64,000 bases of DNA, taken from positions 44,454 to 108,453 of IMG/VR virus record IMGVR_UViG_3300021255_003284; one strand, given 5' to 3'. The translations under genes were made by a program, and so were the position numbers. Positions 410 to 61,414 of the stretch are shown here, one piece after another (the stretch's first letter is position 1; each line of letters begins with the position of its first letter). The notes under the pieces are model-generated. The model searched no databases. It was not told the origin of the DNA and saw only the letters and a program-made list of their open reading frames with translations. This stretch comes from a virus (lineage: Duplodnaviria > Caudoviricetes).

Positions 410-1465
410 ATGAGTCAATCCATACGTAAACTCGCGTCCATTCAGGTCGTCCACGGGATCGAACAGATCAAAGACGCGGATCGGATCGAGCTAGCGCATG
501 TGCTCGGCTGGCAGTGCGTCGTGAACAAAGATCAGTTCAAGCGCGGCGATCTCGCCGTCTACTTTGAGATCGACAGCTTCCTGCCGATCCGTCCTGAGTT
601 TGAATTTCTGCGTCAAAGCAGCTACAAGAATACGGACATCATGGGCGAGGGGTTCCGGCTCAAAACAATGAAGTTTCGCGGGCAGGTGTCTCAGGGTCTC
701 CTTTTGCCGCTCTTTGTGTTCCCGGAGATCCCGGACGACGCAAAGGCCGGGATGGATGTGACGCGCCTGCTCGGCGTCAAAAAGTGGGAGATAGAAGAAC
801 GCGCTACGACAGGCGGTACGGTCATCGGCGCGCTGCCGCCCGATGTGCCGCATACAGACGAGCCGCGCGTTCAAGCCTACCCGGAACTGATCCAGGCTTT
901 TGCCGGCAAGGAGTATTACATCACCACAAAGATGGATGGGTCGTCCCACTCCCTGTCCATCGACGAAAACGGCTTCCATGTGACCGGCCACAATTTTGAG
1001 TACAAGGACGACGACTCAAGCGCATTCTACCGCTTCGTCAACGCCAACGGCTACAGAGCTCGCATGGAGGATTTTGTTGCGAAGCACGGCGTCAAAACGC
1101 TCACTATTCAGGGCGAGTTCTGTGCGCCAGGCATCCAACAAAACAGGCTCCGCCTGACACGCCCGAAATGGTACGTGTTCACCATCCGTGTCGACGGCCA
1201 ACGTGTCGGCTTGTGCGACATGCTCGACATAACCGAAGAGCTCGAAATGGAGCATGTCCCCGTTGAAGAGGTTGGCAACGACCTTCCGTCGAAATATTCG
1301 ACAGTTGAGGCGCTTCTTGAGCGAGCGGACGGAGACTATCCCAACGGCGGAAAGAAAGAGGGCATCGTGATCAGGCCGACCGAGCCGGTGTTTTGCCCGC
1401 TGATCAGCGCCAGCCTGTCCATGAAGATCGTCAGCAACAAATACCTGCTCAAAAACGACGGTTGA
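410..1465 (+). CDS. ATP-dependent RNA ligase, DRB0094/Rnl2-like family, with N-terminal OB-like domain
   Basis: Motif I KMDGS, QGEF, EGIVIR, KIVSNKYLL; N-terminal RKLASIQ...ADRIELA.V.GWQCVV; AGGAGG RBS. Confidence 0.9.
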   Translation: MSQSIRKLASIQVVHGIEQIKDADRIELAHVLGWQCVVNKDQFKRGDLAVYFEIDSFLPIRPEFEFLRQSSYKNTDIMGEGFRLKTMKFRGQVSQGLLLPLFVFPEIPDDAKAGMDVTRLLGVKKWEIEERATTGGTVIGALPPDVPHTDEPRVQAYPELIQAFAGKEYYITTKMDGSSHSLSIDENGFHVTGHNFEYKDDDSSAFYRFVNANGYRARMEDFVAKHGVKTLTIQGEFCAPGIQQNRLRLTRPKWYVFTIRVDGQRVGLCDMLDITEELEMEHVPVEEVGNDLPSKYSTVEALLERADGDYPNGGKKEGIVIRPTEPVFCPLISASLSMKIVSNKYLLKNDG

Positions 1466-1793: not shown

Positions 1794-3119
1794 ATGTCGG
1801 AGAAAAGACGCGACAAAAGGGGGAGAATCTTACAGACAGGAGAACGTCAGCGCAGCGACGGTATGTATGAATATCGCTATATCGATGCGTCAGGCGTCAA
1901 GCGCAGCGTATACAGCTGGCTGCTTGTACCAAGCGACAAAGCGCCAAGCGGCAAGCGTGCCACCGAGGCGCTGCGCGATATGGAGCGGCGCATCGCGCGC
2001 GACCTCGCGGATGGGATCAATGAAAGCGCGCTCGGAAAGCAGACGCTCAACGAAGCGATCGAATCGTATTACGGCCGCCGCAGCGACATCAGGCCTGCAA
2101 CGCGCCGCACATACAGCGTGCTGTATCGCCTTTATGTGCGCGACACGATCGGCAGTAAGCCTGTGACGAAGATCTGTTTCACTGACGTACTCGGTCTGTA
2201 CACGGAAATGTTGCTCAAGCGCGGCCTGAGTAGGAGCACGGTACAATCACTCGACGCGATGATGAAGCCTGTATTCAACATGTATGTCCGCGCCGGTGCG
2301 ATCCGTTCAAACCCTCTGAACGGGGTCATGCGCGACGTGGGCCGCACGAAGGATAAGGTCGTACGCCATCGTAATGCGCTGACCAAAGACCAGCAGGACA
2401 CACTTCTGAACTACTGCGTACACAGCAAGGTATTCGCATCAAGCCTTCCGATGATCATATTCTTGCTCGGTACCGGATGCAGATATGGCGAAGCTACCGC
2501 ACTGACATGGGACGACTGTGACTTTGACACCGGATCCATCAGGATCCACCGCACGCTGTCGTATCTTCCAGATGAAAACGGTCGTTGCAAGTGGATGCTC
2601 GGACCGACAAAGACTGCTCACAGTACGCGAGTTATCCCAATGATCGAAGATGTCAAGCGGGTGCTCCTCGATATAAAGGCGTCGCAAGAACTTAGCGGAA
2701 AGCGTGGTGCCGAGGTCGACGGTGTGATGAACTTCGTATTTCTGAACAGCAATGGCAATAACCCATTGCAAAGCTGTTTTGATATGACATTGAAGAGCAT
2801 CTGCGATTCATACAACCGAATCGAAACGACACTCGCCGCCGAACAGCATCGCCAGCCGAATCTGCTTCCACGCATATCGGCACACATCTTCCGACATACG
2901 TTCTGCGTCAGACTGTGCGAGAACGGCGTTGACATCAAGATTGTTCAGGAGCTGATGGGGCATGCCAGTATCGGCGTCACGATGGATATCTACAATGAAG
3001 CCACGCTTGAACGCAAGCAATCCAGCCTCGTCTCGGTCGGCGACAAGCTCAACCTCAACATCGGCCTTGCATCGCAACATACCCACTTTTCTACCACTTC
3101 AGACCGCGAAGTTACGTGA
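1794..3119 (+). CDS. int: Tn916-family tyrosine integrase with N-terminal arm-binding domain
   Basis: N-terminal MSEKRRDKRGRILQTGERQRSDG; catalytic TGCRYGE, TKT, HIFRHTF, LMGHASIGVTMDIY. Confidence 0.95.
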   Translation: MSEKRRDKRGRILQTGERQRSDGMYEYRYIDASGVKRSVYSWLLVPSDKAPSGKRATEALRDMERRIARDLADGINESALGKQTLNEAIESYYGRRSDIRPATRRTYSVLYRLYVRDTIGSKPVTKICFTDVLGLYTEMLLKRGLSRSTVQSLDAMMKPVFNMYVRAGAIRSNPLNGVMRDVGRTKDKVVRHRNALTKDQQDTLLNYCVHSKVFASSLPMIIFLLGTGCRYGEATALTWDDCDFDTGSIRIHRTLSYLPDENGRCKWMLGPTKTAHSTRVIPMIEDVKRVLLDIKASQELSGKRGAEVDGVMNFVFLNSNGNNPLQSCFDMTLKSICDSYNRIETTLAAEQHRQPNLLPRISAHIFRHTFCVRLCENGVDIKIVQELMGHASIGVTMDIYNEATLERKQSSLVSVGDKLNLNIGLASQHTHFSTTSDREVT

Positions 3120-8134: not shown

Positions 8135-8347
8135 TTCTTCATAGCATGAATAACCGGTCGGTTTCAGCTCTCGTAAAAGGCATTCCTGGTCTATTCATCA
8201 GGATTACTGACGGCGTTCGCCGCATATAAACCATCTGTCGCTCACTGCCATAATGGGGTTGACGATCTCGCACCGCGTCCAAATGGTGTTCAGCGATCTG
8301 CTGATCAGTGAATAGCATTTTAACCATTTAATCACTCTCCTCTTGCC

Positions 8348-8369
8348 GGCTTAAAGTGTTAAATAAGTC
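8348..8369. repeat. Downstream cassette boundary site B1 (ggcttaaa-GTGTTA-aataagtc)
   Basis: Imperfect inverted repeat with 6-bp spacer 5 bp past the stop codon; same spacer as 13916-13938. Confidence 0.6.
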
Positions 8370-8374
8370 TGTAA

Positions 8375-11300
8375 TCAATTCTTGTGGCAAAAATATAAAT
8401 CGTTATTCTTTGGATCATACATTGTTGGTTCTTTCCCACTGTTCACATATTCGGCGACATTGATTCCTGCATACCTGCCAATTTCATTATACGCCGCCTG
8501 ATAATAGTGATACTGATCTTTCATCAATCCACGGGATTTATATGATGTTAGAATCGTTGTTGCCATAACAGTATCGTCCCTGTCCTGTGCAATGTCAGTC
8601 TGGGCGTTGATGATGTCAGAATAATCATAATCCGTACCGTTAAATTCCCCAATCCGAATCAGGAAACACTTCTCAATCCCGGCATTTTTCATGGTCACCA
8701 TAATATCATCAAAATACGTTTTATACTGGTCACCAGTTACCCCGAGCCTGGTATCACTTTCGCCCTGACACCACAGCATGAACTTATGTCGGATCGTGTA
8801 TCCGTTGTTTGTCAGATACGTTACAGCATCAGACAACCGCTGGAGCGCGTCCGTCAGGTTTTCAGACCCTGTTATCCACGATTGGATGCCAGTGCCGCCT
8901 TCACTTGCGCTGATGCCAATAACAGGCACACCAGTGTGCATATAGTATTCATTGACAAATGCAACGGCAAGCCCCCCGGTTTTGTTTCCGCCATCTGGTG
9001 CGCTGCCTCCGTCATCAATCCCGCCAGTTTTGTTTTCAAATTTGCCAAACGGCTCCGCCATTGGGTAAAGTCTTGTTTTGTCGGTTATAGCTCTAAATTC
9101 AAGGCCGGCACTCGGTATAATGTGTGGATATGATTCTGGCCATGTGCTGTTAGTCACTCCACGTCCAGCCATGTTTGACTGTCCTGCAAAAAGAAACAGA
9201 TCAACAATTCTATTTCTGTCAATCACATAACAGCATTTATCTACATTGGCCGGGTCAACGTTGTTTGAATCGTTCGTTTTGTCCTTAAACTGCAATAGCA
9301 CAACATAATTATTCATACCGTTGGTGTCAATAATCATTTTCCCGGTTGTGTTCCACCCCGTGTTTGGAACAAGCAACGTTTTCTTTGTCGCCTTGTCCAC
9401 TATCATATATGTACCAGCATATACAGAATTATCAAAATACACTATAGCGCCATCATTCAACGTTATTTCACATAATGCCCGAATATTACTGTCAACAATC
9501 CCCGTGCTAGAAATAAACGTTTTCCCGGAAAACCGATACCCCTTGACATAATAATATTGGTTATCCGCATTAACAGGAGAAATATGTTTGACATCATACG
9601 CATTTTCTGTGAGCCGTTCATCAGTTTCCTGTTTCGTAAGGGTCGTCATGATAATCGGCTTGGAGATTACATCTGTATATGATGCGCCGTTTGTGATCGA
9701 AAGGCGGACTATACATCCTGTCGCATTTGCAGATAACTTAACGGCCTTTGTGCCATACCCTGGAATGTTGGCGATTTCTGAGTAACTGCTCCCCACACGC
9801 TCATAAAGCCGGAAAATGATGTTGCTGTTAGCGCAATCATGCACCAAAAACAATTCATCGCCAGCACCGAATCCGCTCGGAAATGCGTTTGCATTATTAT
9901 ATATGTCGTAATGCGTTAAACCGCTCCCGGTAGATGAGCCGTTGATGGTGTAATTGCCCATTCCGTCCGCAACTATGGTAAAACTTCCCGGTCTGTACGT
10001 ACCATTCGAAATAGGGGCATGATTCGCCGCGCCGTAAACATCAATGGCGCTCTTTAAGTCACCAACCTTCGCCGCATCTGCCGCCGCTCCCGCCACAGAC
10101 AGCGTGTCGTCGACGACATATCCCGTAGCCGGATCGACGTGGTCATCGAGCCAATCGGACACAGCATCGCTGACGCCCGCCGTCAAATCAACGGGGTTGG
10201 GATTCTGCCGCCCGCCGTCGTTCGCCCACGATATAACGCCCGCACTCGATACAGCGGGAGTGAACGTCACGCCGTCATCGCCATCCGTGCCGCTCGCGCC
10301 ATCGTTGATCGTGGCGACACCCGTGCCGTCGACACTGATCGTCGTGATCGTGCCTGACTTGCTGGCTGTGATGACAGGCGTGTGACCGTCAGTGCCGTCC
10401 GCACCATCCTTCCCCGCTGGACCGCGCTGCCCTTCGGAGCCATCCATCACATCGAAGCTATGTGCCCCTGTCGCGTCGGTGATCGTTACCCTGTGGCCGC
10501 CGGTAATATCCGTGATTGTAATGATAGGGGACACACCGTCCTGACCGGCCGGCCCAGCCGCTCCCTCCGGACCGGGCGGGCCGTCAACACCGTCGACGAC
10601 GTCGGTCATCGTGATACCGTATAAGTCGGAAACCACGATGGTTGATGTGTTGCCTTCCTTTGTCACATATGCAATCGGGCTGAAGCCCTCCGGACCCGCC
10701 GGCCCAGTATCGCCTTTTTCGCCGCGCGCGCCCTGATCGCCGCGAACACCTCTCGGGCCGGTATCGCCCTTAACGCCCTGCAGCCCGCGTTCGCCGCGCG
10801 GCCCCTGTTCGCCCGTGTCGCCCTTCTCGCCGTGAGGGATACCGAACGTAATAACGCCGGCGTTATAATCCGCCGTCGCAGCCGAACCCGGTTCAAGCGT
10901 GATCGCGTTGGCCGTAATACCGCGCAGTTCGTCGGCAAGCGCCTCTCGCGCTTCTTCTGCGGCCTGTCGCGCCGTCTCGTTTGTTTGCCTGGCGTTTTCA
11001 TCTGACACGCGCCGCTCTTCCGCGCTGATGCGCTGCGCCTCTGCCGTTCGTCTCTCGGCTTCATCGCTGACGCGCAAAGCTTCACTGTCCCTCCGCTCGA
11101 TTTCAGCTTCGACACGGCGTTCCTCAGCGGCCAGTCTGTCACCCTCGGAGGCGATGCGCATCGTCTCGCCGGATAGGCGCGCGTCTTCATTATCTTCGCG
11201 CTCGAGCTCTGCCGATACGCGCTCAGCTTCGCCGCTTATGCGTTCAGCCTCATTCTGTACGCGGATAACCTCTGCGCTGATTCGCGCTTCTTCGGCCGCG

Positions 11301-11767
11301 ATCCGATCTTCTTCCCGCTGCAATCGATCCTCTTCCGCGCTCACGCGCACGCTCTCCGCACGGATAGCCTTTTCCATCTGCGCGTACATGATTTCAAAGG
11401 CGCTCTGCTGCTCGGGAGTAACCTCGTCATAATTTGGCTTCGGCCTCTCGTGCACGGGAATGACGGCTGTATAAGCTGTCTCGCCGTCGTCAAGATCGTC
11501 ATGCAGATATACGAATGCGTAAACAGGCTTGCCGCTTTCAAACATGATGTTCGGAACGACGACGCCGTCGCTCGTCCCTGTTTGCGATACGGCGTCCCCG
11601 CCCGTCGCGCTGTTCGAGAAATGCACCTCGTAGGCTTCTGGGAGCGATATGCCGTCAAATCGAAGGACGATGCCGTAATCCCATTGCCAGAGGCTTCTGG
11701 CGACAGACGATGTCTTGCCCGCCCTGAATGACGCGGTCACGACATGTCTGAATTCCGCTTCCGCCAT
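8375..11767 (-). CDS. Virion appendage protein: BppU-like N-terminus, coiled coil, collagen repeats, C-terminal SASA (CE6-like) acetylesterase
   Basis: LWQWDYG..L...YEVHFSN; E/R/A heptads; Gly-X-Y runs; LFAGQSNMAG, WCQGESD, DQYH. Confidence 0.85.
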   Translation of the reverse strand: MAEAEFRHVVTASFRAGKTSSVARSLWQWDYGIVLRFDGISLPEAYEVHFSNSATGGDAVSQTGTSDGVVVPNIMFESGKPVYAFVYLHDDLDDGETAYTAVIPVHERPKPNYDEVTPEQQSAFEIMYAQMEKAIRAESVRVSAEEDRLQREEDRIAAEEARISAEVIRVQNEAERISGEAERVSAELEREDNEDARLSGETMRIASEGDRLAAEERRVEAEIERRDSEALRVSDEAERRTAEAQRISAEERRVSDENARQTNETARQAAEEAREALADELRGITANAITLEPGSAATADYNAGVITFGIPHGEKGDTGEQGPRGERGLQGVKGDTGPRGVRGDQGARGEKGDTGPAGPEGFSPIAYVTKEGNTSTIVVSDLYGITMTDVVDGVDGPPGPEGAAGPAGQDGVSPIITITDITGGHRVTITDATGAHSFDVMDGSEGQRGPAGKDGADGTDGHTPVITASKSGTITTISVDGTGVATINDGASGTDGDDGVTFTPAVSSAGVISWANDGGRQNPNPVDLTAGVSDAVSDWLDDHVDPATGYVVDDTLSVAGAAADAAKVGDLKSAIDVYGAANHAPISNGTYRPGSFTIVADGMGNYTINGSSTGSGLTHYDIYNNANAFPSGFGAGDELFLVHDCANSNIIFRLYERVGSSYSEIANIPGYGTKAVKLSANATGCIVRLSITNGASYTDVISKPIIMTTLTKQETDERLTENAYDVKHISPVNADNQYYYVKGYRFSGKTFISSTGIVDSNIRALCEITLNDGAIVYFDNSVYAGTYMIVDKATKKTLLVPNTGWNTTGKMIIDTNGMNNYVVLLQFKDKTNDSNNVDPANVDKCCYVIDRNRIVDLFLFAGQSNMAGRGVTNSTWPESYPHIIPSAGLEFRAITDKTRLYPMAEPFGKFENKTGGIDDGGSAPDGGNKTGGLAVAFVNEYYMHTGVPVIGISASEGGTGIQSWITGSENLTDALQRLSDAVTYLTNNGYTIRHKFMLWCQGESDTRLGVTGDQYKTYFDDIMVTMKNAGIEKCFLIRIGEFNGTDYDYSDIINAQTDIAQDRDDTVMATTILTSYKSRGLMKDQYHYYQAAYNEIGRYAGINVAEYVNSGKEPTMYDPKNNDLYFCHKN
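10039..10068 (-). repeat. Upstream cassette boundary site A1 (encodes VGDLKSAID)
   Basis: catcaatggcgctctttaagtcaccaacct; 29/30 identical to 15558-15587; coincides with a compositional shift. Confidence 0.9.
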
Positions 11768-11802
11768 GGCTATCAGCTCCTTTCGTTTTATATATACTGA
11801 TA

Positions 11803-11881
11803 AGGCCGGCGCTGACTGAGCGCCGGTTTGCTTGCTGTTTTATCAAGGGACACTGCGGGCGGTCGTTTGACCAGCCCGCAG
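11803..11881. terminator. Two intergenic hairpins (terminator or RNA processing)
   Basis: ccggcgct/agcgccgg stem at 11803-11829 and ctgcgggc-ggtc/gacc-a-gcccgcag at 11853-11881. Confidence 0.45.
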
Positions 11882-11902
11882 CTGTCTGATTATTGTACCT
11901 GA

Positions 11903-12217
11903 TCAACGACCGCCTTCGCTTGCACCGATCTGGTCGATGCGCTTGTTGAGCCACACGATCTGCTCTTCGACCACAGGCATCCTGCGGGCGAAGTTGTTGT
12001 GCTCTCGCACTTCACGCGTCAACTCATCGATCTTCGTGTCGGTAACGGCCTGCCACTTTTCTATTTTATCGTCGAGCGCCTTGTCGGCCAGCTCGCTTTG
12101 CTTATCCAGCTTCGTATACAGATCTTTACTGTTTTGCTTTGATATAAATATCTGTGATATGATCGCGCAGACTCCGGTGATCAGCGCGACAACAATCGCC
12201 TCTGTCACGCCCATCAT
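11903..12217 (-). CDS. Holin-like membrane protein (N-terminal TM plus coiled coil)
   Basis: EAIVVALITGVCAII, LTREVREHNNFARRMPVVEEQI; overlaps the endolysin stop. Confidence 0.65.
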   Translation of the reverse strand: MMGVTEAIVVALITGVCAIISQIFISKQNSKDLYTKLDKQSELADKALDDKIEKWQAVTDTKIDELTREVREHNNFARRMPVVEEQIVWLNKRIDQIGASEGGR

Positions 12218-13779
12218 CCTTTCGCGATCTCACTTCTGGGGTACTTCGCCATCAACTCTTCTACCTCGGCCCGGCTCAGGTCGTATATGACCAGCGTATA
12301 GTACGCGGCCGGGTCGGCCGGCGCTGTCACGACCGGCTCATTGGGTTCGATGTTCGGAGTAGCGGCTGTGTCATTTTCGCCGTTCTCTTCATCCTGTTTC
12401 GGCATGGCCGCTTTGATCGCGGCGATCGTTGCCTTACCGGCGACACCGTCTGCTTCCAGATCATGATCTTTTTGAAACTGCGTGATCGCAGCGATCGTCT
12501 CGCCGCCGCAATCGCCGTCCGCGCCGTAACGCGGAAGAGCGTATCCAAGTGCGATCAGTGCCTCCTGAAGTTCTTTGACGTCAGACCCCTTAACGCCTTT
12601 CTTGATCGTCCTCGCCCCAAGCTTCGAGCCGCCGATCGTACCGATTCCGACGTATTCGATCATCGTGCTCGGCAGGCGTCCCCATTCGGTCCACGGGCCG
12701 TCCGTCACTTTATTGCGCACACAATCATACGCGAATCCTTTCATTTCAACCGTATAACCGCCGCCTACATATACGCCGATATGCCCGGGCTTATGCACGA
12801 CCAACCCGGGGATGTCCGGGATCGTGCTGATCTGACCCGTCTCGTCGCACAGCGCGAACAGGCCGTCGGCGCTTCTGTCGGGGCAGCCGTTGCTCTGATA
12901 CGTGTTCTTGCCATTGATGTTCCCGTTCTTCCAGAAAAATGATTTGATCATTCCGACACAGTCGGCGCACATCTTCCCATTTGCGATATCCTTCATATAC
13001 CCGCTCGTCCTGTCGGACGTATAATGTTCCGGATATTGCTGGCGCTTGCTGTTGTACAGTGACTGCGTACACTGGTAACCGCATGAACCGTACCAGTATA
13101 CCCACGCGGCCTCATACACCTGTTCGCAATAATTGGCCAGCTCCAGATTCGTAGGCATTCCTGTCTCCCCCTTTATAGCGCGATCATCGGCGAACCACTG
13201 AAGCACCCGCCCGCCGCGATACGCGTTCAGGTCGACATTGCCATCGATACCGGCTACGCACCCTTTGCTCGTATACTGCCACAGGTCGCACGCCTGCGTC
13301 GGCGCGTATGATTCGTTGATCGTTCCGTCGTCCTTGCCCCAGCGCGGAATCCACACGATGTCACACAGCGCTTTGGCCGATCCGATCCAGTTGATATGAG
13401 GCTGACCGACATACATGCCGATCCTCTTTATGCCGCGTTCTCTGAGGCGCGTCAGAAACGCTATGCATATATCTTCCGTATTGGATGCCGTCTGCGCCTC
13501 ATATTCGACATCCAATATATAGAATGCTGGCTTGCCCGCGCTCGCGCACTGCACAAACCAATCGGCCTCGTCTCGCGCGGCCGCAGTGGATGACGCCTTG
13601 ATGTAGTGATACACGCCGTACGGCAAACCGCACTGTGCGGCGTTCGTCTTATACTTGGCATCCTCTTTCATACCGACAGACGCACGGAATATGACCATCT
13701 CAAGCTCAGTCCGGGCCTTCGCCCAGTCAATGGTGCCGTTCCACGCGCTGATGTCCGCGATTTTCATTCGCCCGATCAC
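12214..13779 (-). CDS. Endolysin: GH25 muramidase, NlpC/P60 peptidase and PG-binding domain
   Basis: DISAWNGTIDW, GVYHY, LDVE, WQYTSKG, VDLN; ADCVG and HIGVYVG; GSDVKELQ..L...GADG. Confidence 0.92.
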   Translation of the reverse strand: MIGRMKIADISAWNGTIDWAKARTELEMVIFRASVGMKEDAKYKTNAAQCGLPYGVYHYIKASSTAAARDEADWFVQCASAGKPAFYILDVEYEAQTASNTEDICIAFLTRLRERGIKRIGMYVGQPHINWIGSAKALCDIVWIPRWGKDDGTINESYAPTQACDLWQYTSKGCVAGIDGNVDLNAYRGGRVLQWFADDRAIKGETGMPTNLELANYCEQVYEAAWVYWYGSCGYQCTQSLYNSKRQQYPEHYTSDRTSGYMKDIANGKMCADCVGMIKSFFWKNGNINGKNTYQSNGCPDRSADGLFALCDETGQISTIPDIPGLVVHKPGHIGVYVGGGYTVEMKGFAYDCVRNKVTDGPWTEWGRLPSTMIEYVGIGTIGGSKLGARTIKKGVKGSDVKELQEALIALGYALPRYGADGDCGGETIAAITQFQKDHDLEADGVAGKATIAAIKAAMPKQDEENGENDTAATPNIEPNEPVVTAPADPAAYYTLVIYDLSRAEVEELMAKYPRSEIAKG

Positions 13780-13915
13780 CGCCTCTCCGTTTATATACCG
13801 GGCGACTTCTGCCGCCCGGCATTGATGACTCGGCTCGGCATGGCTATGATTACGTAGTGATTGCGCCTCTTTTGTTGCGCTTACCTTTTAACCGCCCATG
13901 CTCTCGCCGCTTTAC

Positions 13916-13938
13916 TGACTCAAAGTGTTATTTAATCA
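13916..13938. repeat. Downstream cassette boundary site B2 (tgactcaaa-GTGTTA-tttaatca)
   Basis: Imperfect inverted repeat overlapping the stop codon; spacer as in B1; outer arm mirrors TGACTTAAAG of the A sites. Confidence 0.65.
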
Positions 13939-16089
13939 TTTGTGCGGCGGTAGCATATTCAACTCAGCCGCGATAATATTGCCAATGTCCATACACGCTT
14001 TCCCGCTCAAATCAGTATTCGGGTGCTTTCCGTCTTGCATATGCAACTCCGGCAAGCGATATGATCTACTCGTTCCTCCACTTTCAATCCAAATTCCGCC
14101 GCCGCTCGTTTGCTGCCAATATCCGGTACTCATTACTGCTCTGTCCCATGCCCAACCCAGTTTGTCGCAGATGCGGATTAGCGGCAGGCCCCAGTATTCA
14201 GCGACGCTTTCCTGCATATCGATCACTCCGGGTTCGCGCTGAGTTTCATAATGGCTGATCAATACGATGTTGGCGTGCGGATTCACGGCAAGGATGGCGG
14301 CAATAAATGTATTCATTGCCCCCTGATATGTAGAACGATCAAACGCATTATCGGGATTGGCAACATTATCGGCTGAATTGACACGCCAATCATTATAGCC
14401 GTGGTCGAACACATACAAATCGACCGGGTTTGTTGTGACATACTGCATCAATTTGTTTTCGTAACTACAGGCAATCGCTTTATCTTTGATCACGTCCGTC
14501 ATTGCGGCATCGTACCCAGTTATTGCCCGCCACTTCGTTTCCCAGTTTGTAGTTAATTCCGTTTTTTCTGCAATCGTGCCGCCCAAAGACCACAATGCAC
14601 CAATGCCCATATTCGTAACGCCGTAAGGATCATTTTCTGACTCCGCGCTTCGCGTCCCGCGCCGTGCGCAAGATGAGCCCACGGCCTCGTTATAAATCGT
14701 AGCCCCCAGCAATTCACCCACATATTCGGGGTAGCCGGTGACCGGATTATAGCCGGACGGTTCCGGTATTGAGGTGCCGAACCATGCAATTTTTTTTCCG
14801 TGCCATTTACTATAAGGCATTGGCGCAACCGTCTGATATTTGGCTACATACAGCAAATATGTATTGGCGTTTACAATCACTTCGTCAACGCCGGATGGAA
14901 TCACAACAAGCCACCGTTTGAACATCTGGTTTGCGTTCTCAGAATAACCTACAATCGCGCCATCTTTTCTGAAAATATATGCTGGATAATCGTTCCCGTA
15001 TTTATACGCAATAATTTCATATTTTTCGCCACGGCTCACAGTGATAGAAGTATGCTGTCCGATATTCGCGATTGCCCCTGTTTTATTCATAACGCCAGAA
15101 ACGGGTGTTACGTTGATTCTGTTATATACACCTGCTTCTCCATTTTCGACAATACTATCAACAACCGTTTCAAGTGCTATAAAATCACTTTGATTTGCCT
15201 TTTCATGAACAACTGTTATGTTTACAGTCGAAGACAAAACAATATCACTTATCATATCTGGGGTTAAAGCTGAATTGTCATCAGATTTAATGCATACCAT
15301 AACCTGTGTTGCGGTACTGTTATCTGACGTGACATTCTGCGCCCACGATGCATCAACAATATAATTCCCGCTTGAATCGCATAACAATAGCCTTGCCTTA
15401 TATCCGCTTTTCACACTAACATATTCCCCAGCAGACCATTTTGCAAACTCTTTTGTTCTGACGACATAAGCCAGATCTTGTGGTTTCAGTTGCTGTCCAA
15501 CGTTAATAGCGGAATAGTTTCCTTGCTCAAATAGATAGGTTTTTATGGGATTAAATTCATCAATGGCGCTCTTTAAGTCAGCAACCTGAGATCTAACCGC
15601 CTCTCCGGCCGTTTGATACACCGTCCCATCTGAACCAATGCGGATGTCGATGACCTCCGGAGCCAGCTCACTCGTCGACTCGTCAGTCATCAAATGAATG
15701 ATCTCGTTGAGCCTGGTGCTGATCGCGGCGACGCTGACATAATCAATATTGTCGCTATATTCGTAGTCGCTTGGCTTTGCCCTCGGCGCAACTGGGATCT
15801 GTATCACATGCTTTGTCTTATACGCGTCATTGTCAGTCTCGTAGTATAGATAGGCGAATATCGTCTCAGCGCTCTGAAGTAGTACATTCGGCACCTTAAC
15901 CGTAAGATCGGTGCCGCCGGTCTCCTCTGGCGTAACGACCAGTGCCTCCTTGCTGCATCTGTTTGCGAAGTGAAAAACGGGATAAGGCGGAACCTCGGCA
16001 CCTTTTATTGTAATCGTTTGGTTTGTATCCCATTGAAACATCGTGCGCAGCAGTTCGCCCATCGAGTCATAGCAAACTATCTGACTCAT
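13936..16089 (-). CDS. Virion appendage protein: BppU-like N-terminus and C-terminal SGNH/GDSL hydrolase
   Basis: FQWDTNQ, VFHFAN, RAKPSDY; EVIDIRIG.DG..Y..AGEAVR linker; KKIAWFGTSI, GYND, DGKHP. Confidence 0.85.
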   Translation of the reverse strand: MSQIVCYDSMGELLRTMFQWDTNQTITIKGAEVPPYPVFHFANRCSKEALVVTPEETGGTDLTVKVPNVLLQSAETIFAYLYYETDNDAYKTKHVIQIPVAPRAKPSDYEYSDNIDYVSVAAISTRLNEIIHLMTDESTSELAPEVIDIRIGSDGTVYQTAGEAVRSQVADLKSAIDEFNPIKTYLFEQGNYSAINVGQQLKPQDLAYVVRTKEFAKWSAGEYVSVKSGYKARLLLCDSSGNYIVDASWAQNVTSDNSTATQVMVCIKSDDNSALTPDMISDIVLSSTVNITVVHEKANQSDFIALETVVDSIVENGEAGVYNRINVTPVSGVMNKTGAIANIGQHTSITVSRGEKYEIIAYKYGNDYPAYIFRKDGAIVGYSENANQMFKRWLVVIPSGVDEVIVNANTYLLYVAKYQTVAPMPYSKWHGKKIAWFGTSIPEPSGYNPVTGYPEYVGELLGATIYNEAVGSSCARRGTRSAESENDPYGVTNMGIGALWSLGGTIAEKTELTTNWETKWRAITGYDAAMTDVIKDKAIACSYENKLMQYVTTNPVDLYVFDHGYNDWRVNSADNVANPDNAFDRSTYQGAMNTFIAAILAVNPHANIVLISHYETQREPGVIDMQESVAEYWGLPLIRICDKLGWAWDRAVMSTGYWQQTSGGGIWIESGGTSRSYRLPELHMQDGKHPNTDLSGKACMDIGNIIAAELNMLPPHK
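15558..15587 (-). repeat. Upstream cassette boundary site A2 (encodes VADLKSAID)
   Basis: catcaatggcgctctttaagtcagcaacct. Confidence 0.9.
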
Positions 16090-43993: not shown

Positions 43994-45749
43994 TGTGTCC
44001 GATCAACCCCCTTTCCGTATAAGATGGCGGCTTGATAACAAACATGCTCTGTGAATCGGCGTTCATATTCAAACGCTTACTCATCTTCGTTTCAAGCTGC
44101 GTGGCCACATAATAATTGTAGGACAGGCTCGAATATCTGTCCTTGCGCATGCCGCTGCGCTCATACAGGCGGACGCGGCCACTCGACTCTTCGTGCTGGA
44201 GTTTCACCATTTCGTCGATCAACAACGTCGTATGTATGTAGGGCAGTTGGAACAAAACGCGTTCAGAGGCGTCGAGCGCCGCATATCCCTTAATGGACGC
44301 GAGCTCTTCCTCTGCGTCGTATTCGTTCATCAAAAGCCTTATCCGTCCGCTGCGGAAACCCTCGCGCAGCAGGAAGGCGCAGTCAGAGTTGAACTGCGCG
44401 TTGGCCTTGATCGACCAGATCGCCTTTTCTGCTCCAGGCACAGTACATCTGTCCGCCATTGTTTTGTCGTTATAGCACGACAGGGCAGGATAGATGTCGC
44501 CGGTATCGGGATCGACGATGTCGTGAGCGAGCGTGTCAAAAACTCCAAGACCCACGCCGTTTGCATCGAGTACGATATAATCGCACTTAAATTCGTCGTA
44601 AAGTCTTCTGATCATCAACGCCTGGTCGTCTGTCCGGAGTCCCTCGCAGGCGTCAGCGTATACGATATTACTCGTATACCGTCCGGCCTTCGATGGAAGC
44701 ATCTGATTGATGAATATGGCCGTCGCGTCGTTGTTGTTCTTCTTGCTCGACATCAACGCGATATCGGCTGACAGGATCCGCAACTCATTGCGCTGCTTTG
44801 GCTGTATACGTATCTGAGATGCGTTACCAAGCCTTGAACAGATCTGATCCGGCATCATCGGATATTTGATGTGTCGAGTCCGCGATATCGAATCAAAATC
44901 AAAAAACGAGTCGCTCGACGACCCGTAGAACAGGGCTTCCATTTCCATACTGAATTTGATATCGGAAAACCCAGCCTCCGACATTTCATCCTGCACAGCT
45001 TCGGGATCGAGAAGCCCTTCCTTGATCGAAAGCTGATAAGGGAAGCTGCACACAAACTGGTGTCTGTTCGGATCAACCATCGCTCTGAACGTGTCGACAC
45101 ACTTTTCATAACTCCAATGATCTGTGTAATAAGCCGAACTCAAATACAGTGTCAGATTCTTCTCTTTGTCGTACTCAAGTTTTCTTTCCTCCTCAGACAA
45201 CGCGCTATAGCGCGGCATCCGGCGGAGGGTCAGGAACTTGCGAAGCACGGTATCGATGGTGTCTTTGGATATCAGCCGATACTCATCCAGCAGCAGCACA
45301 TGACACCTGTTGCCTCGCGCGTTGTCGTTCGCGGTGACAACTTTGATCATACTGCTGTCGTAGAACACGATCTGCGCGTTCGTCCCGTTCAGCTTTGTTT
45401 CCTTGTCGTTGATTTCCGCCTGAAGCTCTGGCGAACCTGGCTTCAGCTCATAAAGTATCTTTTCGAGGACATTGATAGCCTGTCCTCTCTTTCCCGACGC
45501 GATACACACATGCGTCCCCGGGTACAGAATACACCGGATCACACAGTATATCGCGCTCAGATATGTCTTGCCGAGACCTCGGCATGCGATCATAACAAAC
45601 GTCGTAGACCAGAACATCATGGCGAGCAGAATCTTCTGAAATGTCCTCAGGCGTATGTGCAAGTAGTCTTCTGCGAACTTTTCCGGATGATACCTGTAAT
45701 ACGCGCCCCACACCGCCGCGCCGTTCTGAATGGCTTCGGCTCTCGTCAC
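43956..45749 (-). CDS. terL: Terminase large subunit
   Basis: Walker A ACRGLGKT, ARGNR, Walker B LLLDE, LSSA, ILSADIA, VLDANGVG, RKDRYSS. Confidence 0.92.
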   Translation of the reverse strand: MTRAEAIQNGAAVWGAYYRYHPEKFAEDYLHIRLRTFQKILLAMMFWSTTFVMIACRGLGKTYLSAIYCVIRCILYPGTHVCIASGKRGQAINVLEKILYELKPGSPELQAEINDKETKLNGTNAQIVFYDSSMIKVVTANDNARGNRCHVLLLDEYRLISKDTIDTVLRKFLTLRRMPRYSALSEEERKLEYDKEKNLTLYLSSAYYTDHWSYEKCVDTFRAMVDPNRHQFVCSFPYQLSIKEGLLDPEAVQDEMSEAGFSDIKFSMEMEALFYGSSSDSFFDFDSISRTRHIKYPMMPDQICSRLGNASQIRIQPKQRNELRILSADIALMSSKKNNNDATAIFINQMLPSKAGRYTSNIVYADACEGLRTDDQALMIRRLYDEFKCDYIVLDANGVGLGVFDTLAHDIVDPDTGDIYPALSCYNDKTMADRCTVPGAEKAIWSIKANAQFNSDCAFLLREGFRSGRIRLLMNEYDAEEELASIKGYAALDASERVLFQLPYIHTTLLIDEMVKLQHEESSGRVRLYERSGMRKDRYSSLSYNYYVATQLETKMSKRLNMNADSQSMFVIKPPSYTERGLIGHNGGRGQPGWSNY

Positions 45750-47392: not shown

Positions 47393-48334
47393 TTATGTCG
47401 TAGCGTGAAATGCAAGCTTCCAAGCTTCGTAATCTCTTATAAGCTCGGAACGAGCTTCGCGAGGTCGTCCTCCTGACGTGCTGTCTCTCCGCCGTTCGTT
47501 CTTCACGAGTATACCAGAACTATCGACAAGAAAGTCGACAGGGTAGCCGGCGACCTCTTTTTCATATGTCCTGTAAAACACCCCGGACAGCCTGAGTGAG
47601 TAATACGACATCTTGTTCTTCCAGTCTAAATGACCGGATGCTGCCAGCTTCTTCCATATCTGCGTATTGCACGCATGTGTGCTTGCGAGGCCAGACGGTG
47701 TACGAATAATCTCTTCACCCTTTACTCTCTGTGTTTTATATGGTGTGCCGTTTCTGAATATAACCAGCGAATCAAGATTCGCGCAATTCATTAACGATGG
47801 CACCGCCTCTGTATATATCGGATATTCCGAACCGGCGAGCTTATACACCATGTTGTCTATGTCGATATTGTTTTTGCTTACGAGACATATGTCAGACGTA
47901 TCGATACCGCTAAACACCATCCACAGATAGCACCTGTACACGTCGTCTATCGACCTGTCCTTCTCAGGACGGAATATGGTGTTCATATAAGTATTTAGCT
48001 CGAAAGGGCATGATATAAGTTTACTTTTTACGACCGAAGTTTTGTCAACTTCTATATCGGCAAGGTCGGACCGCGCGCCGTCGACGCCGCGTCTGACGCA
48101 CCAGTTGGCGTAATTCTTAATGATCCTTACCCTTGCAGATATGTTCTTGAATCTGAAGCCGCACAAGTTCTCTATGGCACGATTTACTTCGTCGGGCGAC
48201 TGAGAGGATACATCGCAGCCCCACTGTATTTCATAAGACTCGAGGTCGTTAAACATTATTCTAATCGCCCTTCTCATGCTCAAGCTTGTCGTCGTCTCCT
48301 GAATGAACTTTTCTTTAAGCTCGGCGTTATACAT
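47393..48334 (-). CDS. MrpR (YopR)-like tyrosine-recombinase-fold protein, probable repressor
   Basis: MYNAELKEKF, YANW, LWMVFSG, SLRLSGVFYRTY resemble SPbeta MrpR as recalled; no HxxR/H/Y catalytic set; GGAGGT RBS. Confidence 0.6.
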   Translation of the reverse strand: MYNAELKEKFIQETTTSLSMRRAIRIMFNDLESYEIQWGCDVSSQSPDEVNRAIENLCGFRFKNISARVRIIKNYANWCVRRGVDGARSDLADIEVDKTSVVKSKLISCPFELNTYMNTIFRPEKDRSIDDVYRCYLWMVFSGIDTSDICLVSKNNIDIDNMVYKLAGSEYPIYTEAVPSLMNCANLDSLVIFRNGTPYKTQRVKGEEIIRTPSGLASTHACNTQIWKKLAASGHLDWKNKMSYYSLRLSGVFYRTYEKEVAGYPVDFLVDSSGILVKNERRRDSTSGGRPREARSELIRDYEAWKLAFHATT

Positions 48335-48368
48335 GAGCACCTCCACAAAGAGTTGGATTCTATCGTTC

Positions 48369-48398
48369 ATGTTACCACGCGAAGCATCGACAAGTCAA
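48369..48398 (-). promoter_or_regulatory. Sigma-A promoter for the MrpR-like gene
   Basis: TTGACT-18 bp-TAACAT with extended TG. Confidence 0.55.
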
Positions 48399-51970: not shown

Positions 51971-53004
51971 CTTTGTGTTTCGATATATTACCCGATCGAT
52001 TATTGCCTGTTGAGTGCGTCGTCGGCGCTCCACCCGTATTTATTTACGCGAGACTTTATGGTGCCATACGGGATACCGGTCTCTCTGGACCATTCAGCTA
52101 TGGTTTGTGACCTGCCATCATGAAACAGAAGATGGTTTCGCGATGTATTATTGTTTTGCACAATGTGATCAACCCATCGGCAGTTATCTGGACAGTAATC
52201 TCCGTTCCCATCGATCCTGTCGAGTGTCAAACCCTCTCGGTATCCGTTACTGAGCGCCCACTGTATGAATACTGAAGCGTCGTGCCAGTCTGAACAAACC
52301 TTAATCCCGCGTCCGCCATATAAAGGATAAGATCTGTTGGAAATACTCTCACAACGATCCTTCATTGAATTCCATACGCCATATAGTTTACTATCAGACA
52401 TCCCGTGACGAGTCCTTCGCGCAGACGAACATTCATTTCGGTAACACCCGCAAGACTTTGTGTTACCATTGCGAAGGGATGAAAGTCTAACCGCTTTGTG
52501 GTTGCCACAATCACAAACACACTCGTACATCACTTCATGTTTGCCGGATGGTAAAACCCTATCCGCCGTCCTGTAAAGTACGGTCAGTCTTCCGAAGCGC
52601 ATATTGTCGAGAGTCAATAAGCATCACCTCCTTCCTATAACTAATAATAGCGAATGATCGGGTAATAACGGGCGCTACCCCGTATCGCGGCCTATGCCGC
52701 TCATGCTTTCGCATGAGAACAGACTATATCTTCATCCAATTCTGGATGCCCACCACTTCGACGGCGCTTGCCGTCTACTCCATAAGGATAGTCGTTGAAC
52801 CTTGCCGTATTCTGGCCTTGGCTGCTGATCGTCCATTGTTTAACACGTAGGCATTGACCTTATGTCATCCGTTATTTTCTTTCTGCTTTCGCGACCATCG
52901 CGCCTGTGCATTTCATCACTACGCTGTGGTAATAACGGCTTTAGGATATTCCAGCAATTCAGTGGGTTATGCGCGCATATTCCTATGCGCGAGACCTGAA
53001 GTCA
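51971..53004 (-). ncRNA. Group I intron (IA2-like), 1034 nt, carrying a homing endonuclease
   Basis: P1 GACU|UG-ACUU-CA-GGUC with U.G at the splice site; P 52949-52959, Q 52817-52829, R 52789-52799, S 52722-52732; P7.1/P7.2; P9 with GAAA loop; terminal G 51971; splicing restores FRAPMT-CINNIR. Confidence 0.93.
52000..52617 (-). CDS. Intron-encoded HNH-family homing endonuclease
   Basis: GRLTVL, CVCDCG, SCGC, YGGRGIKVC, TLDRIDGNGDYCPDNCRW; AAGGAGGTG RBS and TTG start. Confidence 0.85.
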   Translation of the reverse strand: MTLDNMRFGRLTVLYRTADRVLPSGKHEVMYECVCDCGNHKAVRLSSLRNGNTKSCGCYRNECSSARRTRHGMSDSKLYGVWNSMKDRCESISNRSYPLYGGRGIKVCSDWHDASVFIQWALSNGYREGLTLDRIDGNGDYCPDNCRWVDHIVQNNNTSRNHLLFHDGRSQTIAEWSRETGIPYGTIKSRVNKYGWSADDALNRQ

Positions 53005-54501
53005 AGTCATTGGAGCCCTGAAGCACGCCAGCGTCTCAGCTTCTGTGTCGGCCCAGTACCCATTATAGATCTCACCAGCCCTCAGAAGTCCCGTCTTCTC
53101 AAGACCGAACACGCTCTGCATCAGCAGGTATGGATCCCCGGATACGATGGAATAATTGCCGTGAACCTTGAGCACGCCGATCTTTGCCTCGTTGATCCTG
53201 TTGCGGATCATCTGGTATATCGTCCTCTGGATATACGGATCGTTGAGCATTCGCCTGTCGATCATGATCGCCTTGATGAAATCATCCGACCCGTCCATAA
53301 CGTTGTCCGCGCTGACGCCGTTGCCGCGAAGGAACAGGACCGTCCTCCTCCAGTCACTCTTGAGGACATCACGGATCTCGTCCATCGTCGGCTTTATCAG
53401 GGTGTCGATATCGTCGTCCTCGAGTGGCAAGCACTGAATGAACTGATAATTCGTCGTCCTGACGTTTTCAAGTTCCTCTGGACATGTCTTGGCAGCGCTA
53501 AACGTATAGCCGTGCGCGAGCGACTGCTCGATGTAATCGGCGCAGCTCGTATAGCTGTCCCACAGCTTGACCATCGATGTTGTGAGGATCAGCTCGACGT
53601 TTCGCACGTCGACATCGTCACCCCATGCATCCTTCACAATGTACTTGCCCGCAACGTTTTCGGCAAAATCAAGGAAGTCGAACGCAAAGATCATGCCTTT
53701 TGTCCAGGCCGCCCGGCAGTTCAAACCGCCGACGGTATAATCGAGACCGAGTTCCGCACTCCATCGCTCTGCCAACGACGGCAGCATGACGCCAAATCCG
53801 TCAGACGCATCGATTTTGATTCGTTGATCGTTTCGGCGCTCCATGATCGGCTCGCCGTCATTCTCGTCTGTCAGGTAGATGATGTCAGACGTGAACTCCG
53901 TCTCAGCGTCGTTGACGATCAGAACGCCATGCGGCAGCGAGAGCGGCGTTGACGCGCTGCACGTCAACGCCTTGTACGCCTCAAGCTTCGCCACGACAAG
54001 CTCTTTGTTCCTGTCGCGACCGTTCTCTATCCTGTCGGATAGCTCGCCATAAAGCCGCTCGCTCACAAATACGATCGTCGAATTTTTGATACCCCCGTTT
54101 GTGCCGAGAAGCCGTTTGTATTTGACACCGTTTATTTTGAAACCCCGGCACGCTCTGATATAGTCCTTTTCCTTATCGATTATAAGACACATATAATCCG
54201 GCTTGAATTGGAGATTATCAAGCTCGCTGTATAACCGTCTTATCTCATATTTGCTCTGCGCCGTTATAGGTTCCTCTCGGATCGTCCGTATCTGCCGCTT
54301 GATTTCCCGGGCTTTGGCATCGGCGTCCGTCACCCCGTTCAGCTCATCGATCCAGCGCAGGATCTGGCTGTCAGCGATGGATATGATCTCGTCATTGCGG
54401 CGCGCCTCGTCGAGAGGAAGTGTGAGCTTCCACTTCTCCTTGCGGAGCCGAGACGAGTGGATTTTGAGGATGAATTTCTGACATACTAACTGTTTGCTGA
54501 T
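53005..54501 (-). CDS. yonO: YonO-like RNA polymerase, exon 1 (probable ATC start at 54501)
   Basis: KLEAYKAL..S, SDGFG, RAAWTKG, SMVKLW, NYQFIQ, SGDPY, FRAP; frame is open to 54507 behind an AGGGGTG RBS. Confidence 0.88.
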
Positions 54502-60512: not shown

Positions 60513-61304
60513 TCACGCCATGGCCGCGTCCGTTTCGCCGATCCCGCTGTCCACAAGATAGTTGTGCGCGACGCTGCCGAGGTTCAGCGCTCTGTACGCC
60601 TCATCGATCTCTTCGCTCGTGATACCGATATAATCCAGAGTCTGAGCGGGGGAGGAGTGGTTCAGCATTCTCTGCAGGAGCAGCAGCCTCCGGCTGTCGT
60701 TGTGACTCATCAACATCTGGTGATAGCAGAAGGTCTTGCGCAGCGTATGCGTCGACATCTTCACGCTCAGACCGAGGTCGCGCGCGACGCCTTTCAGTAT
60801 CCTGTCGATCGACCAGACAGCCAGCGGCTCGTTGGCGTTCCCGCCGCGATTCGATTCGCTCCTGAACATGTAGTCGCTCAAGCTGATGTTCGGCGTGTTC
60901 TCAAGATAAAGCGTGACGGCTTCGATGACCGCGCGGTTGATCGTGATATACCGGTTCTTCTTGCGCTTGCGCGTGTTGCGCGTCTTCTTCTCGAACACCG
61001 GGAAGCTGTCGCGGAACGTGCAGTTGTCGTTGATCAGGTTGCTGAACCGCAGCATCCTCAGATCACTCACGCGCAGCCCAAAGTTGATACCTACGATAAA
61101 GAGCATGTTGTCGCGGTATCGTCCGTTGTCGATCAGAAACTTGGAAATGGCCATGATGTCATCCATGCTCTTGATCGGTTCAGCCGCGTGTTCCGGCGCA
61201 ACCTCGCAAATCGTTTCTTCCTGGGCGGGCAGAATAAGGGAAGGATCCAGTCTGCGTTCGTTGCTCGCTCTCAGCGCGTTCAGATTGATGATGTTTCCGG
61301 ACAT
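60513..61304 (-). CDS. Small tyrosine recombinase without an arm-binding domain
   Basis: GINFGLRVSDL, EKKT, HTLRKTFCY, LNHSS...TLDYIG: full R-K-H-R-H-Y set; AAGGGGTG RBS. Confidence 0.9.
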   Translation of the reverse strand: MSGNIINLNALRASNERRLDPSLILPAQEETICEVAPEHAAEPIKSMDDIMAISKFLIDNGRYRDNMLFIVGINFGLRVSDLRMLRFSNLINDNCTFRDSFPVFEKKTRNTRKRKKNRYITINRAVIEAVTLYLENTPNISLSDYMFRSESNRGGNANEPLAVWSIDRILKGVARDLGLSVKMSTHTLRKTFCYHQMLMSHNDSRRLLLLQRMLNHSSPAQTLDYIGITSEEIDEAYRALNLGSVAHNYLVDSGIGETDAAMA

Positions 61305-61414
61305 GATATACACCCCTTTATGCAAGTAAAATTGGGTCGAAAACTGGACTCGTCAAGGAAAAGTTGAAAATGGAACTTTCAAGAATGACCTAAAACGGTG
61401 GGTCTGAGTTCTCT

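Follow-up and report, generated by a model that had tools for sequence, protein, structure and literature searches.

How could a phage exchange the receptor-binding tips of its tail fibres, which largely set its host range, without breaking the reading frame of the fibre gene? The question is raised by a stretch of DNA (hereafter the window) that forms the right 64 kb (64,000 nucleotides, nt) of a 108-kb IMG/VR virus record (IMGVR_UViG_3300021255_003284, positions 44,454 to 108,453) and that carries two fibre genes, gene 1 and gene 2, on its minus strand. These genes are homologous only in their N-terminal anchor (31% identity over 95 residues), and each contains, at the start of its C-terminal module, a short repeat that we call site A, and has behind its stop codon a second site, B. 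An earlier reading of the window (the original prediction) took the modules for cassettes that a site-specific recombinase swaps at A and B. The cassette architecture at the fibre tips is real, is shared by a large family of fibre genes, and both fibre genes of the window belong to this family of A/B joints. For the way in which the joints work, we tentatively favour the explanation that short-homology recombination makes use of A and B as conserved swap joints, to which we give a little less than an even chance.

Two joints around the fibre-tip modules

The repeat described in the original prediction is present: the A sites of the two genes agree at 29 of 30 positions (Table 1) and both are read in frame, as V(G/A)DLKSAID. 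A 23-mer of the site occurs in the window at these two places only, with zero occurrences expected, and among the 2415 pairs formed by the A sites of 70 fibre genes (mean agreement 20.7/30) the pair in the window is the most similar, which suggests that both came from one donor lineage or that gene conversion took place within the genome. The core of the site, TGAYTTAAAGAGCGC, is read as xDLKSA. When IMG/VR was scanned with this 15-mer, most of the matches listed were in-frame xDLKSA motifs in long fibre open reading frames (ORFs), and among these listed matches at least five kinds of linker precede the core and many different C-terminal modules follow it. Protein searches likewise returned many fibre proteins with DLKSA(I/L/F). 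Conservation extends to synonymous positions, as had been predicted, and does not merely concern the protein: in 11 genes picked by protein criteria only, with each gene's own codon usage as the expectation, the TTA codon of A was observed 10 times (2.3 expected), the AAG codon 10 times (3.9 expected) and the AGC codon 8 times (2.2 expected). The information profile of A consists of a conserved block of ~20 nt with a sharp fall on either side. Most of the genes found by exact scans of three collections with 20-23-mers of the site are unrelated (curlin-like repeat proteins, a G6PDH-like protein and one other), and locus L009 is the only fibre, so that the exact 23-mer of the window must be considered rare though the 15-nt core is common. 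Two unrelated contigs from IMG/VR and JGI (L001:12032-12054 and L008) also contain the 23-mer, read in frame as ADLKSAIDV, within the gene of a secreted protein that its repeats suggest to be curlin-like; the match is unusually long and, the collections being so large, is probably due to chance.

Between A and the stop codon, both genes carry a module that is compositionally foreign. Its GC content is 0.439 in gene 1 (0.616 in the N-terminal part) and 0.452 in gene 2 (0.508 in the N-terminal part), while the neighbouring structural genes are at 0.56-0.58. The proposal that the DNA becomes AT-rich from A to the stop holds in that both modules are AT-richer, but the drop in GC content begins near A and not exactly there. 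Gene 1 consists of the anchor, a coiled coil, collagen repeats, a GC-rich segment, site A, a middle domain and, from residue 855, a SASA esterase (E = 2.5e-20); its module is composite, only the SASA part being common to most relatives. In gene 2 the anchor is followed by an AGEAVRSQV linker, site A and a module that is probably an SGNH/GDSL-type esterase, judging from a GDSL_2 match with an E value of 0.005, below the Pfam cut-off, and from the presence of PF13472 in relatives. No relative of gene 2 was found in the PDB. The esterase call made for both modules is, therefore, sound for gene 1 and only probable for gene 2. The GC-rich segment that separates the collagen repeats of gene 1 from its site A (10070-10440, minus strand, approximately residues 443-565) is absent from all relatives compared, and gene 1 is consequently a mosaic of at least three pieces, of which only the last is AT-rich.

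Site B follows the stop codon. In the window, TAACACTTTAAG and TAACACTTTGAG sit 16 and 7 nt after the two stops, TAACACTTT(A/G)AG follows each stop, and ACACTTTRAG is found nowhere else. The 12-mer match of B alone is not significant, its score being reached by 90 of 500 shuffles; the score of a 50-nt alignment of both post-stop regions was reached by 1 of 500 and is significant. The outer arm of B is indeed an inverted copy of the A arm, with 10 of 12 positions matching the inverted 12-mer of A in gene 2 and 9 of 12 in gene 1. The description of the sites at the stops as imperfect inverted repeats fared less well: sites with TAACAC are present after both stops, but the description is generous for the window because the inner arms are poor. 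Across the family, the inverted 12-mer of A was found with at least 9 of 12 matches between 5 nt before and 55 nt after the stop in 32 of the 70 fibre genes; the controls gave 0/70 for the reversed arm, 0/70 for coding sequence and 4/62 for positions further downstream. A 9-mer version of B has 162 occurrences, 21 of them within 30 nt after long ORFs, where about one is expected by a rough estimate. In fibre genes B lies 5-26 nt after the stop codon, and its consensus is a non-coding block of ~28 nt that runs (TGAY)TTAAA, then GGACAC or TAACAC, then TTTAARTCAGTAAC and that, on reading, contains stop codons in all three frames. It recurs after unrelated modules; its absence after homologous modules had been named in the original prediction as a result that would speak against the model. 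The sites of the window are ordinary to degenerate members of this A/B family.

The arms of A and B are related to each other more closely than the two arms of B. Where the A arm varies, the B arm varies with it (permutation P 0.0004), although shared descent may contribute to this value, and the outer arm of B matches A at 9.35 of 12 positions versus 6.49 of 12 for the best local left arm. B often has the form TTAAA-N6-TTTAA. A local hairpin or terminator was considered and rejected: in 31 of 37 cases A is a better match to the right arm of B than any local left arm is, and the energies of local folds are small, mostly 0 to -4 kcal/mol; B is thus not mainly a hairpin. Site B matched no Rfam family and showed no promoter or terminator pattern. 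With folds of this strength, no arrays and at most one strict B site per locus, integron cassettes were likewise discarded as a model. Locus L229 (150-420) contains two full B palindromes (TTAAAGGACACTTTAA), 212 nt apart and on either side of an ORF of ~45 amino acids, with another TGACTTAAAG in between, which indicates that B-type sites can also flank small genes.

Natural replacements in related phages

The lineage of the window phage is rare. A megablast search of GenBank phages with the 12-kb region gave no match, the DUF859 neighbour of the fibre genes has no relative in IMG/VR, short-query blastn searches of cultured phages gave chance matches only (a match in an Agathobacter phage belongs to an unrelated protein, ParB-like by reading), and tblastn with the linker retrieved only a few Streptococcus prophages and faecal contigs. 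Relatives were sought in 16 runs, examined as assembled contigs only; their coverage of the stretch is partial, and uncovered parts were not counted as absence.

A syntenic scaffold (L002/L003) with 95-98% identity shares three blocks of homology with the window (24000-15561, 13928-10545 and 8160-4000). In L002, the module of gene 2 is replaced from within the core of A to 7 nt past the stop codon, the start of the outer part of B. Contigs of four other animal-gut runs contain the constant parts and neither of the modules of the window. Altogether, four or five relatives found in other animal-gut samples have a different module in gene 2, with 5' limits at or within ~15 nt of A and, in three of them, with a limit at B. 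Homology breaks at 15566 and 13934 in X3, where the centre GAGCGC is kept, at 15595 and 13787 in X6, at 13912 in X4 and at 15596 in L004. The latter relative, 93% identical, has at the position of gene 2 (L004:12752-14115) a 909-amino-acid fibre, a gene of 400 amino acids and the start of another gene-2-like anchor with 68% identity to 15967-16089, so that the number of fibre genes at this locus varies. In gene 1 the homology of relatives stops within the collagen repeats (10439 or 10545) and starts again where the next gene begins (8140-8160); none of these limits falls at A or B. The block between the fibre genes (11903-13779, the endolysin gene and a gene of 104 amino acids) is constant in relatives. 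The limits of gene 2 agree in four or five comparisons with the expectation that homology should break at A and B; those of gene 1 do not.

Comparisons elsewhere in the family give a similar picture on the 5' side. L098 and L104 are 100% identical over 3108 nt up to GACTTAAAGAGC and unrelated thereafter, and L100, L101 and L106, whose anchors are 76-82% identical, diverge at the end of the core. Behind the B site of L101 lies a leftover 3' end of another module, which is still used by L106; the 3' junction of L101 was, therefore, not made at B. Breakpoints are spread over 5-35 nt on the 5' side and up to 150 nt on the 3' side, which does not agree with an exchange exactly at the A and B sites. 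The cassette model consequently stands in part: modules do lie between an in-frame A and a post-stop B with mirrored arms and different centres, but the swaps of gene 1 avoid both sites. No near-identical cassettes in different contexts were found in ~77 loci except for the window and L002, no empty docking site (an anchor-only gene ending in DLKDTLNQ) was found, and no swapped junction between gene 1 and gene 2 was seen in the assembled contigs.

Mechanism of exchange and comparison with known systems

We propose that A and B are boundary sequences that bracket an exchangeable C-terminal enzyme or receptor-binding module in a large family of tail fibres of gut and rumen phages. A new module would enter by a double crossover, one in or beside A and the other in or beside B. 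These crossovers would most likely depend on homology: related phages would exchange by ordinary recombination, unrelated ones by short-homology annealing at the joints. Lineages that retain the joints could continue to take up new tips, which may be why A and B are conserved in their nucleotide sequence. Exchange driven by homology is suggested by the variable breakpoints, by the centres, which differ in swapped partners (GAGCGC in the window versus GGGCGC in L002; GAGCGC in L104 versus GAGCCA in L098), and by the gene-1 swaps at collagen repeats; the leftover module end in L101 also fits such events. That the joints themselves promote exchange we infer, as we do the enzymology. Several observations weigh against short-homology recombination as the full explanation. 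Homology alone is insufficient to account for outer arms that are mirror images over 12-15 nt and covary, or for a centre of B that is non-coding and yet conserved and asymmetric. In a swap between unrelated fibres only 15-20 nt would be shared, a short stretch for recombination of RecA type. The window yielded no single-strand annealing protein, though no systematic search for one was made, and the assembled contigs provide no directly observed exchange event. The mirrored arms, the asymmetric centre of B, the sharp edges of the conserved blocks and the joining of A to unrelated sequence on both sides leave some probability to a site-specific or signal-directed mechanism.

In the original prediction the exchange was a natural form of recombinase-mediated cassette exchange. 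Worked out for the whole family, this model would make A and B two-armed sites with a common design (TTAAA, a 6-nt centre, TTTAA and longer outer arms), with GAGCGC as the centre at A and TAACAC or GGACAC at B, so that A would join A only and B would join B only and the module would be swapped between genomes; the phage integrase, another phage tyrosine recombinase or a host Xer protein are the candidate enzymes. This seems rather unlikely to us, and so does its wider form, which we consider unlikely as well, namely that A and B are heterospecific two-armed sites at which a site-specific enzyme swaps tips in frame between co-resident phages, as a standard of many unrelated gut and rumen phages. 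The same arms do occur mirrored, the outer ones better kept than the inner ones, around centres that are distinct and conserved. Also in favour are the synonymous conservation and sharp edges of A and its junctions with unrelated sequence on both sides; one very recent swap ends within the centre, and three tyrosine-recombinase-like proteins are encoded in the window. In versions with DLKSAL the site A is itself palindromic (TTAAAG-AGCG-CTTTAA), and a right arm with at least 6 of 10 matches is found in 35 of 70 A sites. However, this palindromic tendency could stem from the codons for hydrophobic and polar residues, and the A sites of the window have no such second arm (3-4/10), contrary to the two inverted arms on which tyrosine recombinases act; the local left arms of B are weak as well (on average 6.5/12). 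The matching spacers on which this kind of exchange was expected to depend are contradicted by the differing centres of swapped partners. Moreover, the limits of several pairs lie outside the sites (15595/6, 13787 and 13912), and gene 1 is swapped elsewhere. Of 68 loci, 12 have an integrase no more than 7 kb away, in the usual lysogeny position; no dedicated recombinase linked to the fibre loci was found among these 68, and none of the three PF00589 or MrpR-type proteins of the window adjoins an A or B site. The rest of the 108-kb record shows no enrichment of the A/B arm, and the window contains no array of junction palindromes.

Mirror symmetry is also what an orientation-dependent signal for the processing of DNA ends needs. 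If A and B were polar signals for break processing, either Chi-like or targets of a sequence-specific nuclease, DNA ends would arise at the cassette borders and be repaired from another phage; inversion of the cassette would then be useless, and none is seen. We regard this as very improbable, since it is purely inferential, no nuclease gene is linked to the sites, no sign of breaks was found in the sequences, and known Chi sites are shorter than the arms of A and B. It is improbable, though less so, that the sites have no role in recombination at all, with DLKSA(I/L) kept as a motif that structures the beginning of the module, B serving regulation or translation (as a three-frame stop or the leader of the lysis genes) and the swaps due to general recombination between related phages. 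DLKSA is widespread at the protein level, B closely precedes the ribosome-binding site of the following gene and has stops in all frames, and the gene-1 swaps bypass the sites. On the other hand, conservation of A extends to synonymous positions, the outer arm of B copies A and covaries with it, B shows mostly weak hairpins (0 to -4 kcal/mol) and neither promoter, terminator nor Rfam match, and breakpoints cluster at A in at least five independent comparisons. Two further candidates were rejected. As for an inversion switch, inversion between A and B would add nothing but 0-132 nonsense codons (at most 70 in all cases but one), and the inverted state was not found in more than 300 loci. There is no indication of a diversity-generating retroelement: no template-like repeat of the fibre modules was found in the region.

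Module exchange at conserved sequence elements has precedents. In the tailspikes of lytic Escherichia coli phages, conserved coding and non-coding motifs flank the receptor-binding domains and have been proposed as recombination hotspots for the exchange of these domains (Virol J 2023, PMC10408124). As in those coliphages, where the pattern is attributed to hotspots, A and B are conserved above their surroundings across genera: a coding motif at the border of anchor and module stands out from its flanks, and a non-coding motif follows the stop across unrelated modules. The homology of relatives breaks at the motifs in gene 2, in L098/L104 and in L100/L101/L106, and elsewhere in gene 1. The sequences and hosts are different (temperate phages of gut Firmicutes type), and the joints are shorter and sharper here; no terminator is predicted at the downstream motif, which has the coding motif inverted as its arm and stops in three frames. 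The suggestion that the architecture is undescribed is therefore right only in part: motifs flanking the receptor-binding domain on the coding and non-coding side were published in PMC10408124, where the mirrored arm and the three-frame stops are unreported. Distal tail-fibre genes of T-even phages recombine between conserved motifs (Tetart, Desplats, Krisch 1998, cited in PMC3157838, PMC10408124), and there too short conserved in-frame motifs mark the swap points of adhesin modules; those motifs are internal fibre repeats, and the citing papers describe neither a post-stop partner site nor mirror symmetry. The PeSLs of T4-type phages are short border elements that mediate insertion, deletion and replacement, and with it modular shuffling (Arbiol et al. 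2010, PMC2839356; PMC4122927). They resemble A and B in being short conserved elements at module borders, but consist of a promoter and a terminator stem-loop between whole genes, whereas one of the joints described here lies in a reading frame and promoter, terminator and stable hairpin are lacking; a regulatory cassette of PeSL type was rejected for B on these grounds, i.e., the absence of promoter-like or terminator-like sites and weak hairpins.

Heterospecific lox/FRT and Xer/dif-type sites share with A and B the arrangement of two sites with common arms and different centres around a cassette, but inner arms are weak or absent here, centres differ in swapped partners and breakpoints are not fixed. 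The invertible segments of Mu (G), P1 (C) and p15B (Min) also have inverted repeats at the junction of constant and variable fibre parts; unlike these, the loci studied here have no alternative tip in opposite orientation, no linked invertase and no inverted state. A pair of joints of ~20 and ~28 nt, one in frame and one behind the stop, would explain how unrelated gut phages trade tips without breaking the frame, and would make the 'linker' idea of modular phage evolution testable by way of defined nucleotides. The joints also offer a simple rule for finding cassette borders in genomes of uncultured phages, and their unexplained mirror symmetry is the feature that is likeliest to point to new enzymology.

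Gene neighbourhood and further observations

The features discussed above are listed in Table 1. On the minus strand they are preceded by genes for a tape measure protein of 3410 amino acids, a DUF6558-type gene, a tail protein of 939 amino acids and the DUF859 tail protein; fibre gene 2, the GH25 endolysin gene, the gene of 104 amino acids, fibre gene 1, the ORF of 62 amino acids and further small genes follow in this order. In the family as a whole, the genes 3' of the fibre loci are the usual lysis genes.

Table 1. Coordinates of the fibre genes, their joints and modules, and adjacent genes in the window.
Feature	Position	Strand	Remarks
Fibre gene 2	13936-16089	-	717 aa
Site A of gene 2 (30-nt repeat)	15558-15587	-	conserved core TGACTTAAAGAGCGC at 15566-15580
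Exchangeable module of gene 2	13939-15565	-	AT-richer than surroundings, GC 0.45
Site B of gene 2	13910-13938	-	inner arm TGATTAAA including stop codon, centre TAACAC, outer arm CTTTGAGTCAGT (13914-13925)
GH25 endolysin	12214-13779	-	between both fibre genes
104-aa gene	11903-12217	-	between both fibre genes
Fibre gene 1	8375-11767	-	1130 aa
Collagen-like repeat zone of gene 1	10439-10545	-	where homology of relatives to gene 1 breaks
Site A of gene 1	10039-10068	-	core TGACTTAAAGAGCGC at 10047-10061
AT-rich module of gene 1	8378-10046	-	GC 0.44
Site B of gene 1	8345-8369	-	degenerate member; inner arm GACTTATT, centre TAACAC, outer arm CTTTAAGCCGGC
62-aa ORF	8139-8327	-	part of the variable block of gene 1

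The three tyrosine-recombinase-like genes of the window are located at 1794-3119 (plus strand), 47393-48370 (minus strand) and 60513-61325 (minus strand). The first encodes a Tn916-type integrase with an Integrase_DNA domain, the second, beside the terminase region, a protein whose core-binding domain is of MrpR type, and the third a short Phage_integrase protein of 270 amino acids. Adjoining the integrase gene, at the left end of the window, is a PHA02142-type gene with an OB-fold and an RNA ligase domain (410-1465, plus strand). Finally, an ORF of 443 amino acids (53002-54333, minus strand) matches the Pfam RdRP family exactly at the cut-off (E = 2.2e-5). It presumably resembles the YonO-type phage RNA polymerases, which would put the phage near the SPbeta-like phages.

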